Positions 40,975-42,336 of a stretch of DNA of 64,000 bases are shown one piece after another. Location: contig CAKVGH010000004.1 in the NCBI GenBank assembly GCA_934747255.1, forward strand, positions 11,526 to 75,525, in the 5' to 3' direction. Both the position numbers and the translations under genes were made by a program. Each line of letters begins with the position of its first letter. Within the stretch, counting starts at the first letter, position 1. This DNA comes from an uncultured Clostridia bacterium (GTDB taxonomy: Bacteria > Bacillota > Clostridia > Christensenellales > UBA1242). Under the pieces are notes generated by a model. It did no database searches, was not told the DNA's origin, and worked only from the letters and a program-made list of their open reading frames with translations.

Positions 40975-42336
40975 TTATTTTCCATCTGCAAATAATTTAG
41001 TCAAATTATCAATCAAATTGTTCTCATCATAGTTTTGTCTAAATTCCTGCAACTTTTTAGATTTTTCTGCTCCCAAAATCAAATTGTATTTTAATGTAAA
41101 TGACTTTTCAAAATCAATGTGAATATCGCTACCTTTGTGAGCAAATAGTTTTAAGAAAATTTGGCAATTTGACAATTCAACCAACTCTTCATTTTTACAG
41201 TTAATCATAATGATAGTAAGTGCCTTGCCAGTTGCGGTATTTTTTGCTGTTCTAAACCAGTTCTTCATTTTGTCAACAGCAAGAATTTTTGCTTCTTGTT
41301 CACTACAATTTTTAGACATAACAAAGTATTTAGTCAAAAAGTTTTCCATTTTTACTGCATTTTTAATGATAATTATTTGATTTGCATTATTTTCGGTTTG
41401 TCGAATTAAATTATCAAACAAAAGTGACATTTGCTCATAAAACATTTCATCATTAAGTTCAATTTTTTTGTTAAAAACTTTTAGTGCAGAACATTCACTT
41501 TTTACAAAAGACAAATCTTCTGGTCTTTCATCAACAGCAAACATTGTAAGCTTTTTGTTTTGAGTCAAACTTATTTCATTATTTAAGTCAATCAAAAACT
41601 CTTCAATGTCAACTCCGTTTTCATAGTTAATGATTACTCTCGAACCTTCGGCTATTGGTGATACTCTATCAACAACTTTTAAGTCAATATTACTTCGTGG
41701 GTTTTTACCAAGTTCAATTTGGCTAGTTGGATAAATTGCATCAAGTGAGTCAAAGTCTACTGGTTCATATCGCTTAAAACTTTCCACATCTTTGCCATTT
41801 ATAAATTCTATGTTCTTTACAAGTTTTGGCTTTGTTTCATCAATATCGTAATATAATCCTCTAACAAAATCGCCATTTTTCAATTTTAATTCTTGTAAAA
41901 TGTTTGGTCTAATATAATAAGTATCGTTATTGCCTTCAAAATAAGCATTTTTTAATACAACAGCATATTTATCAAGCATTTTTACATATCCACTAAATGG
42001 GTCAATGTGGTCTGGCAATATTTTAACATCTTGCATTAAAGAAAATGGGTAAAATTGATTTTTTGTTTCTACTTTTTTGTAAACTTGATTATCGTCTATT
42101 GAAGGAATAAAAATGTTCAAAATTTCATCTAACCCAGATATACGCTTGGCTGGTCGACCTTGATTAGTCTTTTTTATGTGCGGTTCTTCTGTGCCTTCAA
42201 CAATAGCCATAATCTTTTTTATAAGTTCGTCTTTCTTATACATTGTCGGCAAATGAACACCAACTTGACGGGCAACATTTCTAAGTTCGTAAATGCCTAA
42301 ACTTTCCAATGCTTCAACAGATAAATTGTTCATCAT
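40975..42336 (-). CDS. Rho-like protein with degenerate ATPase motifs (pseudo-ATPase Rho paralogue)
   Basis: 453 aa with a Rho_N-like start (LGIYELRNVARQVGVHLPTMYKKDELIKKI) and a cold-shock-like segment (YYIRPNILQELKLKNGDFVRG). SPIAEGSRVIINYENGVDI replaces PIG.GQR.LIV.PPKAGKT. DERPE is conserved. QIIIIKNAV replaces VIILLDSIT. Confidence 0.7.
   Translation of the reverse strand: MMNNLSVEALESLGIYELRNVARQVGVHLPTMYKKDELIKKIMAIVEGTEEPHIKKTNQGRPAKRISGLDEILNIFIPSIDDNQVYKKVETKNQFYPFSLMQDVKILPDHIDPFSGYVKMLDKYAVVLKNAYFEGNNDTYYIRPNILQELKLKNGDFVRGLYYDIDETKPKLVKNIEFINGKDVESFKRYEPVDFDSLDAIYPTSQIELGKNPRSNIDLKVVDRVSPIAEGSRVIINYENGVDIEEFLIDLNNEISLTQNKKLTMFAVDERPEDLSFVKSECSALKVFNKKIELNDEMFYEQMSLLFDNLIRQTENNANQIIIIKNAVKMENFLTKYFVMSKNCSEQEAKILAVDKMKNWFRTAKNTATGKALTIIMINCKNEELVELSNCQIFLKLFAHKGSDIHIDFEKSFTLKYNLILGAEKSKKLQEFRQNYDENNLIDNLTKLFADGK

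Follow-up and report, generated by a model that had tools for sequence, protein, structure and literature searches.

The locus described here raises the question of what is left of the transcription terminator Rho when its motor is gone. All Rho activities known to us need the ATP-driven ring motor, and the 'stand-by' state, in which Rho is bound to RNA polymerase (RNAP), is debated. A 64-kb stretch of DNA from an uncultured member of the Clostridia (the window, meaning the whole stretch that was analysed) encodes a protein with the body of Rho and almost none of the motifs of the motor. Is this gene the organism's own rho or an additional copy, and what could its product do?

A Full-Length Rho Homologue

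The gene is defined by the following two features.

40975..42336, minus strand: coding sequence of a 453-aa Rho-fold protein (P0001), predicted to be ATPase-dead, identified from profile, phmmer and AF2 evidence
42344-42348, minus strand: ribosome-binding site GGAGG

The start codon is ATG, with GGAGG 8 nt 5′ of it. The protein, which is acidic overall (pI 5.7), matches the NCBIfam rho model TIGR00767 with E=3.8e-23, residues 7-443 aligning to positions 3-391 of the 415 in the model. An E-value of this size makes the protein homologous to Rho, although the score of 82 bits is under the curated equivalog cutoff of 509.45. The match to NF006886 (E=5.5e-22; 78 bits) also misses its cutoff, which is 315 bits. 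A phmmer search of the PDB returned the Rho proteins of T. maritima (3l0o, E=1.7e-13), M. tuberculosis (7e-12) and E. coli (~1e-6). In the Pfam scan, the matches to Rho_RNA_bind (PF07497, E=4e-5) and Rho_N (PF07498, E=3e-3, or 0.0032) were both under the gathering score, and ATP-synt_ab gave no match. The AF2 model (pLDDT 84, pTM 0.75) has only Rho chains as its top PDB matches (8q3n, E=1.1e-23; TM 0.6-0.77). The similarity to Rho is well above chance along the whole length, and the protein is a genuine Rho homologue with a Rho_N / OB / RecA-like architecture and a C-terminal helical region.

A sequence-only reading of this DNA had described the 453-aa reading frame as collinear with Rho. The TIGR00767 match and the AF2 matches (E~1e-23) bear this out, every sequence string cited in that reading is found in the reading frame, and the whole-length TIGR00767, phmmer and AF2 matches carry the similarity beyond the N-terminal helix-hairpin.

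Loss of the Motor Motifs

The part of the protein that corresponds to the Rho motor contains four features, located by alignment and, for the domain and the Walker A position, by AF2.

41137..41652, minus strand: RecA-like domain, residues 229-400, without nucleotide-binding or RNA-translocation motifs (alignment, AF2, conservation)
41605..41625, minus strand: YENGVDI at the Walker A strand-loop-helix position (PPKAGKT in Rho), shortened and acidic
41518..41532, minus strand: DERPE, which keeps the counterparts of the catalytic Glu (E211) and the Arg valve (R212) found in Rho
41359..41370, minus strand: IIKN at the Walker B position (LLDS in Rho), with Asp changed to Lys-Asn

In both the HMMER alignment and a MAFFT alignment with E. 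coli Rho, 'NYENGVDIEE' faces 'APPKAGKT' and 'IIIIKN' faces 'ILLDS'. Since the two alignments agree, the register is correct and the Walker motifs are truly lost, as the sequence-only reading had proposed in placing YENGVDI at the P-loop and IIKN at Walker B. The MAFFT alignment also has L in place of the Arg finger R366, an unrelated helix sequence in place of the Q-loop, and a deletion of the R-loop region. Walker A is absent in all 20 of the close family members compared. The 'GxR' strand ahead of the P-loop position is kept, and D269, R271 and E273 of DERPED are invariant in the close family and lost in most of the wider radiation. With Walker A, Walker B, the Arg finger, the Q-loop and the R-loop gone, neither Rho-type ATP binding and hydrolysis nor the pulling of RNA through a ring would be expected. 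Judged from its sequence and modelled fold, the protein is incapable of ATP-driven translocation, and the earlier prediction to this effect is strengthened by the absence of all motor motifs but DERPE.

N-Terminal Module, OB Fold and Sequence Conservation

Upstream of the RecA-like domain, the protein consists of the following parts.

42196..42324, minus strand: Rho_N-type helix-extended-helix domain, residues 5-47 (Pfam, conservation)
42097..42195, minus strand: linker motif G..P..KKTNQGRPAK..GLDEIL.IFVP, residues 48-80, predicted to be disordered (conservation, AF2)
42151-42159, minus strand: AT-hook-like GRP core, G60-R61-P62
41767..42012, minus strand: OB fold, residues 109-190, a homologue of the RNA-binding (cold-shock-like) domain of Rho (Pfam, phmmer, AF2)

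The Rho_N-type domain is the most conserved domain of the protein, with a mean pairwise identity of 0.73 and with R19, R23, G26 and P30 invariant across 76 diverse members. PF07498 covers residues 10-43, the AF2 model has helices at residues 7-46, and residues 4-63 are 48-57% identical to the canonical Rho P0077. An AT-hook is defined by a GRP core with flanking basic residues (PMC4615771). Here the GRP core is invariant throughout the radiation and is common to canonical clostridial Rho, in which GRGRP or KGRP motifs are present (P0077, P0094 and P0105). Every residue that is invariant across the 76 diverse members falls in the helix-hairpin and GRP module.

The OB fold scores 23.8 bits against PF07497, for which the threshold is 27, and its strands lie at residues 111-179 of the AF2 model. 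In the pyrimidine pocket of E. coli Rho, the residues of which we take from established Rho structures to be F62, F64, R66, D78, Y80, E108 and Y110, the equivalents of Tyr80 and Phe62 are kept in the present protein, while F64 is changed to V, R66 to L or K, and E108 and Y110 are replaced. With the pocket substantially remodelled and the protein acidic, Rho-like RNA binding is not assured. The Rho-like RNA binding foreseen from the sequence is thus partly upheld, by the OB fold and the Tyr80 and Phe62 equivalents, and partly weakened by the replacement of the Phe64, Arg66, Glu108 and Tyr110 equivalents.

The RecA-like domain (mean identity 0.45, against 0.46 for the OB fold) contains many invariant residues, and intact ORFs are found in more than 100 clusters formed at 50% identity. 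Such conservation indicates that the protein is under purifying selection across its entire length.

Genomic Context and Orthology

The gene lies between the following features.

42606..45466, minus strand: spoIIR-sleB-ypeB block upstream, part of a conserved (veg-)sipL-spoIIR-sleB-ypeB-rho arrangement
42525..42559, minus strand: hairpin and T-run (intrinsic-terminator-like) directly 3′ of the ypeB stop
42363..42371, minus strand: candidate extended -10 promoter element TGGTATAAT, recognised by consensus only
40714..40743, no strand assigned: bidirectional intrinsic-terminator-like hairpin, common to this gene and a convergent giant gene

The neighbours ypeB, sleB and spoIIR are those named in the sequence-only reading. 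At the loci whose flanks were recovered, which form the basis of this comparison, fully canonical rho genes occupy the same neighbourhood. The gene for canonical Rho P0105 adjoins ypeB in the order veg-sipL-ispE-spoIIR-sleB-ypeB, and that for canonical P0094 is found three genes after spoIIR-sleB-ypeB. An intermediate that retains the P-loop, P0065, is encoded directly after sipL-spoIIR-sleB-ypeB, and the dead forms P0087 and P0074, together with the orthologs of the present gene, directly after ypeB. There is one Rho-like gene per stretch examined (the 64-kb window and other loci of at most 21 kb), and in these same stretches canonical, intermediate and dead forms never occur together. The synteny is not universal, as the relatives P0039, P0120 and P0077 are found in other contexts, P0039 among housekeeping genes (infC-rpmI-rplT...yebC-X-recO). 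In locus L006, a 205-aa version that has only the N-terminal part is encoded immediately after spoIIR.

Identity to the window's proteins ranks the loci alike, whether it is taken from the Rho-like protein or from YpeB, SleB, SpoIIR and SipL. For the Rho-like protein and YpeB respectively, it is 48% and 68-71% at the loci of close orthologs, 25-27% and 37-41% at distant dead or intermediate loci, and 24% and 29-30% at canonical loci; the rho-like gene evolves faster than its neighbours. The sequence-only reading had called the protein a paralogue. Occupation of the canonical rho slot of related Clostridia, together with co-divergence with the flanking genes, instead makes it more likely that this is the organism's rho ortholog, and on these sequence comparisons the gene is probably a positional ortholog of rho and not an extra paralogue.

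The same reading had suggested a sporulation-specific factor on the grounds of adjacency. Canonical rho is equally adjacent to these genes, which makes adjacency uninformative on the dead form and the sporulation neighbourhood a matter of inherited synteny. The hairpin after ypeB, which has an equivalent in the orthologous loci L012, L001 and L002, sets the gene apart from the sleB-ypeB unit. TGnTATAAT is present at the same place in these three loci (four orthologs with the present one, at ~48% protein identity), and we infer that it is an extended -10 element of the sigma-A, or housekeeping, type. The ypeB terminator and the conserved -10 suggest that the gene forms its own transcription unit, which speaks against the sporulation-specific proposal. 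A SigF/SigG-type promoter was sought upstream by analogy with B. subtilis rho, and inspection by eye showed no more than a weak resemblance that is not conserved. The whole window gave no Rfam match at gathering thresholds, and with permissive settings the 3′ region yielded nothing beyond a chance Rfam match below threshold.

Two further observations concern the locus. PADLOC gave no defence-system match for the gene, and a defence role was dropped. The sense strand is 56% purine with a C/G ratio of 0.82, a bias that could report indirectly on continuing Rho pressure only once it is calibrated against Rho-plus and Rho-minus Clostridia.

Distribution of Degenerate Forms

The protein stands at one tip of an extensive radiation. 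The P-loop is missing from 101 of the 145 top representative clusters, all of which come from uncultured Clostridia; neither the single-sequence search nor the search with a 76-sequence profile returned a cultured representative with the degenerate form. In the radiation, Rho_RNA_bind matches 53 of 76 members and Rho_N 49, while ATP-synt_ab matches only 14. Dead forms are found in lower-GC loci. The tree of the relatives is a crude one, built by NJ, and long-branch artefacts can easily arise in it.

The partial losses differ between branches. In alignment, P0065-type proteins have 'GERGSGKT ... DKRPED ... VDD' where the present protein has 'YENGVDI ... DERPED ... IKN', so that the P0065 branch keeps the P-loop and loses the catalytic Glu, whereas the other branch keeps DERPE and loses the P-loop. 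Different partial losses at one slot suggest that ATPase activity became dispensable first and that the motifs then decayed independently. We tentatively extend this, at somewhat less than even weight, to an entire clade of uncultured Clostridia from the gut and the environment. Its sole Rho homologue may be a protein that works without ATP and was derived from the motor in steps, the translocation loops going first and the catalytic Glu or else the P-loop after them.

Possible Functions

By a narrow preference, we read the protein as a motor-less, converted rho product that serves uncultured gut Clostridia as an ATP-independent nucleic-acid-binding scaffold, expressed from its own housekeeping-type unit. 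In this low-GC, spore-forming gut lineage, rho would have changed from the gene of a motor to that of a protein without one, whose mode of action could be that of a scaffold. The helix-hairpin, GRP and OB module, nearly unchanged from canonical clostridial Rho, would be the part that binds RNA or nucleic acid rich in AT, and the same N-terminal module may contact whatever partner the N-terminus of canonical Rho contacts. The dead RecA-like domain could then act as an oligomerisation or structural platform.

An extra Rho paralogue could instead modulate a canonical Rho encoded elsewhere, either in mixed rings, comparable to those in which V1-ATPase has its non-catalytic B subunits, or as a dominant-negative competitor for RNA or RNAP; the sequence-only reading had a regulator or inhibitor of Rho in mind. 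The full Rho architecture fits this idea, as the conserved RecA-like domain could preserve ring interfaces, and DERPE, which in Rho lies at the subunit interface and active site, is invariant in the subfamily. P-loop-less RecA-family subunits are also known mainly as partners of catalytic ones, as in the pseudo-active sites of V1-ATPase (PMC10624635), and mixed hexamers are proposed, in the account of PMC11347177, for species with two rho genes. However, the sharing of one slot by forms that never occur together at the loci examined, the divergence that follows that of the flanking genes, and the loss of DERPE in the wider radiation make a modulating paralogue unlikely, though worth keeping in mind. 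Less probable still is a function in sporulation or germination that is linked to spoIIR-sleB-ypeB, such as the binding of RNA or DNA in the forespore or during outgrowth. The adjacency holds down to ~25% identity of the Rho-like protein and includes the N-terminal-only version in L006, and in B. subtilis Rho is re-expressed in sporulation, from a SigF promoter and by read-through, with effects on outgrowth and on the properties of the spores (PMC11599450). Yet fully canonical rho has the same neighbours, the ypeB terminator is followed by a conserved sigma-A-type -10 with no conserved SigF/SigG-like promoter seen, and P0039 sits among housekeeping genes.

It is also conceivable, though we give it little credence, that the protein acts mainly on DNA, as a nucleoid-associated or regulatory protein in which a SAP-like helix-hairpin and the GRP core would bind the AT-rich chromosome (32% GC), with the Rho body as the multimerising part. 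This proposal draws on the AT-hook-defining GRP core with its basic flanks (PMC4615771), on the helix-hairpin and GRP module as the only invariant part of the radiation, on the degraded pyrimidine-RNA pocket, and on the dead forms being those of the lower-GC loci. However, canonical and presumably RNA-directed Rho has the same GRP motif, AT-hooks can also bind RNA (PMC4615771), and the basic residues that flank GRP in 'NQGRPAK' are fewer than in classical AT-hooks. That the gene is a decaying, functionless relic of rho is hardly credible. The catalytic motifs have all gone, the gene outpaces its neighbours in evolution, and Rho is described as dispensable or absent in many Bacillota (PMC11347177), but the ORF is intact and full-length in more than 100 divergent clusters, invariant residues are found in every domain, the dead domain equals the OB fold in conservation, and both promoter and RBS are conserved.

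If a motor-less, converted Rho is indeed the sole Rho homologue of the clade, the Rho scaffold (helix-extended-helix, AT-hook and OB parts on a RecA-like body) would have a conserved, selectable function that needs neither ATP hydrolysis nor translocation. Candidate roles would be 'stand-by'-type binding of RNA or RNAP, RNA chaperoning, or an architectural one. A large lineage of such full-length proteins, selectively maintained at the rho locus, would amount to a natural separation-of-function experiment. It would show what selection keeps of Rho once translocation is gone, and might reveal a role independent of the motor that bears on the 'stand-by' state. Organisms now scored 'Rho-negative' would not simply be Rho-less. 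As HMM surveys class such genomes as lacking functional Rho, some of what is recorded as 'Rho loss' among low-GC Bacillota may instead be 'Rho conversion'. For biochemistry, a single syntenic slot would supply a ready-made series that runs from canonical through P-loop-only to fully dead proteins.

Comparison with Known Systems

Neither the literature nor Pfam or NCBIfam yielded a characterised counterpart, in agreement with the sequence-only reading, which knew of no characterised inactive Rho of this kind. The nearest relative is canonical Rho, which is collinear over the full length, is the best sequence and structure match, occupies the same slot in related Clostridia and shares DERPE. The present protein differs from it in lacking Walker A, the Walker B Asp, the Arg finger, the Q-loop and the R-loop, and in scoring 82 bits where 509 are required. 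Canonical Rho forms a homohexameric ring that is an RNA-dependent ATPase and translocase, whereas the motif losses predict no ATPase here.

The 'Rho-like' category of Moreira et al. 2024 comprises proteins that match only the Rho N-terminal and/or RNA-binding HMMs; the ATPase was modelled with a Rho-specific profile of their own, and the category is set aside in the main text (PMC11347177) and is reused in PMC13613805. The present protein, which matches Rho_RNA_bind and Rho_N and does not match Pfam ATP-synt_ab (a different ATPase model from theirs), would be placed in this category by such HMM criteria; most of its radiation would be binned there too, and the genomes would be scored as without functional Rho. 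However, 'Rho-like' is defined by missing HMM matches, whereas in this protein the ATPase domain is present as a conserved, motif-less RecA fold, encoded at the rho locus and connected to canonical Rho by graded intermediates.

The short-form 'Group B' Rho (NF041509, paralog_Rho2) of Actinomycetota and the PVC group is also a divergent Rho-family protein. As described in PMC11347177, its catalytic residues and bicyclomycin pocket are retained and its N-terminal domain is missing, the reverse of what is found here. Against NF041509 the present protein scores 42.9 bits (cutoff 628), in a match limited to residues 115-276.

Members of the Rad51-paralogue Shu complex that lack Walker motifs are non-catalytic RecA-fold proteins. 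Like the pseudo-active sites of the V1-ATPase B subunit (PMC10624635), they exemplify a RecA-type fold that is kept, without a P-loop, as a structural, oligomerisation or nucleic-acid-binding module. Both have no sequence relationship to the present protein beyond the superfamily, and both act beside a catalytic partner, whereas here a partner is not evident and may not exist. A Rho N-terminal helix-hairpin used outside the Rho motor is described for RHON1 of Arabidopsis plastids and for the cyanobacterial DUF4912 'Rho-like' proteins (PMC13613805). In that account these proteins have Rho_N only, with no OB or RecA-like domains, whereas the protein described here keeps the whole body of Rho.

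Homology to Rho and loss of the ATPase motifs

The Rho-like protein is encoded at the following position.

40975-42336, minus strand: coding sequence of 453 aa, ATG start with GGAGG upstream

Every peptide string quoted in the sequence-only reading was located within this frame, and the description of the protein as collinear with Rho is borne out by profile, sequence and structure searches. The NCBIfam model TIGR00767 matches residues 7–443 to model positions 3–391 of 415 (E = 3.8e-23), and phmmer against PDB sequences returned solely Rho proteins (T. maritima 3l0o, 1.7e-13; M. 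tuberculosis 7oqh, 7e-12; E. coli, ~1e-6). Pfam Rho_RNA_bind (4e-5) and Rho_N (3e-3) both scored under the gathering threshold, and Pfam ATP-synt_ab had no match. An AlphaFold2 model built with 20 homologs as input (pLDDT 84.2, pTM 0.75) is confident save for residues 57–92, and each of its best 50 matches in the PDB is a Rho chain (8q3n, E = 1.1e-23; TM 0.6–0.77). Homology to Rho along the full length is unambiguous.

The Rho ATPase domain is defined by Walker motifs A and B, the Arg finger, the Q- and R-loops, the catalytic Glu and the Arg valve (PMC11347177). In HMMER pairwise alignments and a MAFFT alignment including E. coli Rho, Walker A APPKAGKT becomes NYENGVDI in a shortened, acidic loop, and Walker B ILLDS becomes IIIKN. 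The Arg finger SGTRK is aligned with SFTLK, another sequence takes the place of the Q-loop, and the region of the R-loop is missing. DERPED, comprising the catalytic Glu and Arg valve, is the sole surviving element. The E. coli sequence used has 419 aa, and its motif strings fell at the canonical positions. Motif loss is fixed in 20/20 close homologs (38–80% identity). Because the alignments agree and the loss is fixed in these homologs, the sequence-only reading, which had both Walker motifs destroyed, was in the correct register, and the loss extends beyond the two motifs it named. What is left is a Rho fold that has no element for nucleotide binding or translocation, and this supports the predicted loss of the motor; the protein is almost certainly an ATPase-dead Rho homolog. 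In the OB fold, the equivalents of Tyr80 and Phe62 are retained and those of Phe64, Arg66, Glu108 and Tyr110 substituted; judged from the alignment, the pyrimidine pocket is remodelled.

Conservation of the dead form

Among members of the close family, pairwise identity averages 0.73 for the helix-hairpin, 0.72 for the linker motif (residues 48–80), 0.46 for the OB fold, 0.45 for the RecA-like domain and 0.38 for the C-terminal region, and every domain holds invariant residues. The dead RecA-like domain is under constraint as strong as that on the OB fold, and the sequences indicate purifying selection on the protein. A pseudogene is made very unlikely by the per-domain identities and the invariant residues in all domains.

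Across 76 diverse members only R19, R23, G26, P30 and G60-R61-P62 are invariant, all confined to the N-terminal helix-hairpin and GRP motif. The same module occurs in related canonical Rho proteins (P0077, P0094, P0105), there with classical AT-hook-like GRGRP/KGRP cores, and is 48–57% identical between canonical Rho of related bacteria and the dead proteins. By these comparisons, the helix-hairpin, GRP and OB module appears hyper-conserved and inherited from canonical Rho.

At one relative's locus (L006, 9989-10606, plus strand), a 205-aa protein encoded directly after spoIIR and before greA has just the helix-hairpin, a KGRP motif and a segment resembling the OB fold, and looks like a naturally truncated family member. 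No RecA-like domain is left in it, which suggests that the N-terminal module forms the core of the function.

A radiation of motif-poor Rho relatives

Searched with a profile, 1.84 billion representative proteins yielded 3451 matches with E ≤ 1e-3, of which 111 reached E ≤ 1e-30; the best 150 of the 3451 form a continuum from 726 down to 118 bits. Among these best 150, the 145 representatives with a length of 330 aa or more were scored for five motifs. Only 21 are fully canonical, 101 lack the GK[ST] P-loop (75 of which carry the GRP motif near residue 58), and 55 lack all five motifs. The degenerate form is a large radiation. A crude NJ tree leads stepwise from canonical Rho by way of mixed intermediates to one large GRP-linker clade, with the window protein at its tip. 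All members derive from metagenomes or MAGs whose label is uncultured Clostridia or Eubacteriales, and many are of human gut origin (Hadza, Nepal). Neither Pfam nor NCBIfam has a family for them. With Pfam hits to Rho_RNA_bind in 53/76, Rho_N in 49/76 and ATP-synt_ab in 14/76 diverse members, they look like "N-terminal + RNA-binding only" proteins.

The intermediate P0065 retains a P-loop (GERGSGKT) and a Walker-B-like Asp (VDD) and has lost the catalytic Glu (DKRPED) and both RNA loops, whereas the branch of the window protein retains DERPED and lacks the P-loop. Different motifs decayed in different branches, which implies that ATPase function was probably dispensable before the branches split. 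P0065 (L022, 4485-5891, plus strand) has relatives of the same type (P0089, P0126, P0139), with P-loop GERGSGKT or GCKGSGKS, VDD, Lys for the catalytic Glu and no Q/R loops; they occupy the ypeB-adjacent slot beside a gerA operon and possibly bind nucleotide without catalysis. Among loci L001-L027, GC content is 25–36% for dead forms and 36–49% for canonical and intermediate forms; the low values echo the reported link of Rho loss with AT-rich genomes.

Genomic slot and transcription

Gene order in the window is spo0A ... sipL-ypsA-spoIIR-sleB-ypeB and the dead rho gene, followed by a convergent giant gene and a TraG/VirD4-like gene; orthologs about 48% identical share this order. Canonical, intermediate and dead forms occupy the same slot.

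Rho-family proteins and their positions
P0105: canonical (SPPKAGKT, DERPEE, Pfam ATP-synt_ab); adjoins ypeB in veg-sipL-ispE-spoIIR-sleB-ypeB
P0094: canonical; three genes past spoIIR-sleB-ypeB
P0065: P-loop-retaining intermediate; immediately past sipL-spoIIR-sleB-ypeB
P0087: dead; immediately past ypeB
P0074: dead; immediately past ypeB

Identity to the window proteins
Close orthologs: Rho-like 47–48%; YpeB 68–71%
Distant dead and intermediate loci: Rho-like 25–27%; YpeB 37–41%
Two canonical loci: Rho-like 24%; YpeB 29–30%

Exactly one Rho-like gene is present in each stretch examined (the 64-kb window and loci of ≤21 kb). Ranked by identity, the loci come in the same order whether the Rho-like protein or its neighbors are compared, matching the prediction of orthologous divergence of one block with accelerated rho. 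In B. subtilis, spoIIR and rho are about ten genes apart. The synteny has exceptions: P0120 and P0077, both canonical, and the dead form P0039 are located in other places. The gene is probably the rho ortholog itself, a reading that is well supported, if short of proof.

P0039 (L007, 8001-9356, plus strand) represents a second dead subtype, 32% identical to the window protein, in a housekeeping context (infC-rpmI-rplT-spoU methylase-yebC-X-recO). Both proteins were found in metagenome assembly ERZ27237419, and both subtypes may occur in one genome; given locus GC of 29% versus 32%, P0039 probably comes from another organism.

Further genes lie upstream.

45529-46074, minus strand: YpsA/SLOG-family gene, in this species inserted between sipL and spoIIR; absent there in L012/L013, where spoIIR directly follows sipL
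50506-51900, minus strand: conserved 464-aa ORF upstream of spo0A
52044-53234, minus strand: conserved 396-aa ORF upstream of spo0A

Neither of the last two has a Pfam match; L012/L013 have 465-aa and 319-aa equivalents ahead of spo0A.

The window and three orthologs all have a hairpin with a T-run 3′ of the ypeB stop and, ~25–35 nt upstream of the RBS, an extended −10 (TGnTATAAT), and no conserved SigF/SigG-like promoter is evident upstream of the gene. For these reasons it looks like an independent sigma-A-type unit outside the sleB-ypeB operon, the promoter being assigned by consensus match only.

The 3′ side holds the following features.

30169-32199, plus strand: TraG/VirD4-type coupling ATPase gene (Pfam T4SS-DNA_transf, 2e-54; PADLOC mad8, 1e-16), preceding the giant gene in the same orientation
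32418-40607, plus strand: giant gene, 2729 aa, N- and C-terminal transmembrane segments, convergent to the dead rho gene
40839-40927, minus strand: ~90-nt element downstream of the rho stop codon (40975), ahead of the terminator (40714-40743)

The giant protein has no Pfam domain. Its homologs (23–47% identity) face the dead rho gene in every dead-form locus with downstream flank (L001, L002, L004, L010, L012, L027), and none was seen beside canonical or intermediate forms where flanks were recovered (L022, L026). It and the TraG-like gene are the only long window ORFs with sense-strand C>G (0.174 versus 0.146 in the giant gene), a composition that would be Rho-prone. In the ~90-nt element, the two arms of a 13-bp perfect inverted repeat (GCTATGTGATATA) bracket three hairpins, and the folding energy of the 276-nt 3′ region is −71.7 kcal/mol (z = −7.4 versus shuffles). 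Single in the window and shared by all same-species contigs (L014-L019), the element is absent from other species' orthologs and has no Rfam match.

Possible functions

We tentatively favor a scaffold that would act without ATP: the protein may bind nucleic acid, namely RNA and possibly AT-rich DNA, and/or a partner of the canonical Rho N-terminus, with the RecA-like domain serving as an oligomerization or structural platform. AT-hooks are defined by a GRP core with basic flanking residues, and some bind RNA (PMC4615771). A mainly DNA-binding architectural protein seems very unlikely. That the protein is a relic is scarcely credible, the dead domain being as conserved as the OB fold and invariant residues occurring in all domains.

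The sequence-only reading spoke of a paralogue. With canonical, intermediate and dead forms sharing the slot and identity falling in step with the flanks, this is probably not so, and it is unlikely that the protein is a paralogue that modulates a canonical Rho with its gene elsewhere. A sporulation-linked factor would be in keeping with B. subtilis Rho, which has roles in sporulation and a SigF promoter (PMC11599450). However, canonical rho also sits in this neighborhood, which therefore carries no specific functional message; we regard such a factor as unlikely, and sporulation specificity, as earlier proposed, is probably incorrect for a gene that also looks separately transcribed from sleB-ypeB.

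Comparison with described Rho proteins

A survey of Rho diversity counted a sequence as functional Rho if the RNA-binding domain and the ATPase domain each had an HMM match, and the remainder were classed as "Rho-like" and left aside in the main text (PMC11347177). A 2026 metagenome study adopts the same scheme and takes Clostridia to include both Rho-positive and Rho-negative species (PMC13613805), and a 2025 review makes no mention of a motor-less Rho (PMC12360218). Our literature search found no description of a full-length, motif-less Rho at the rho locus; such a form is of real interest for the transcription-termination field. The second Rho ("Group B", NF041509) lacks the N-terminus and has intact catalysis, and the protein described here is the reverse case.
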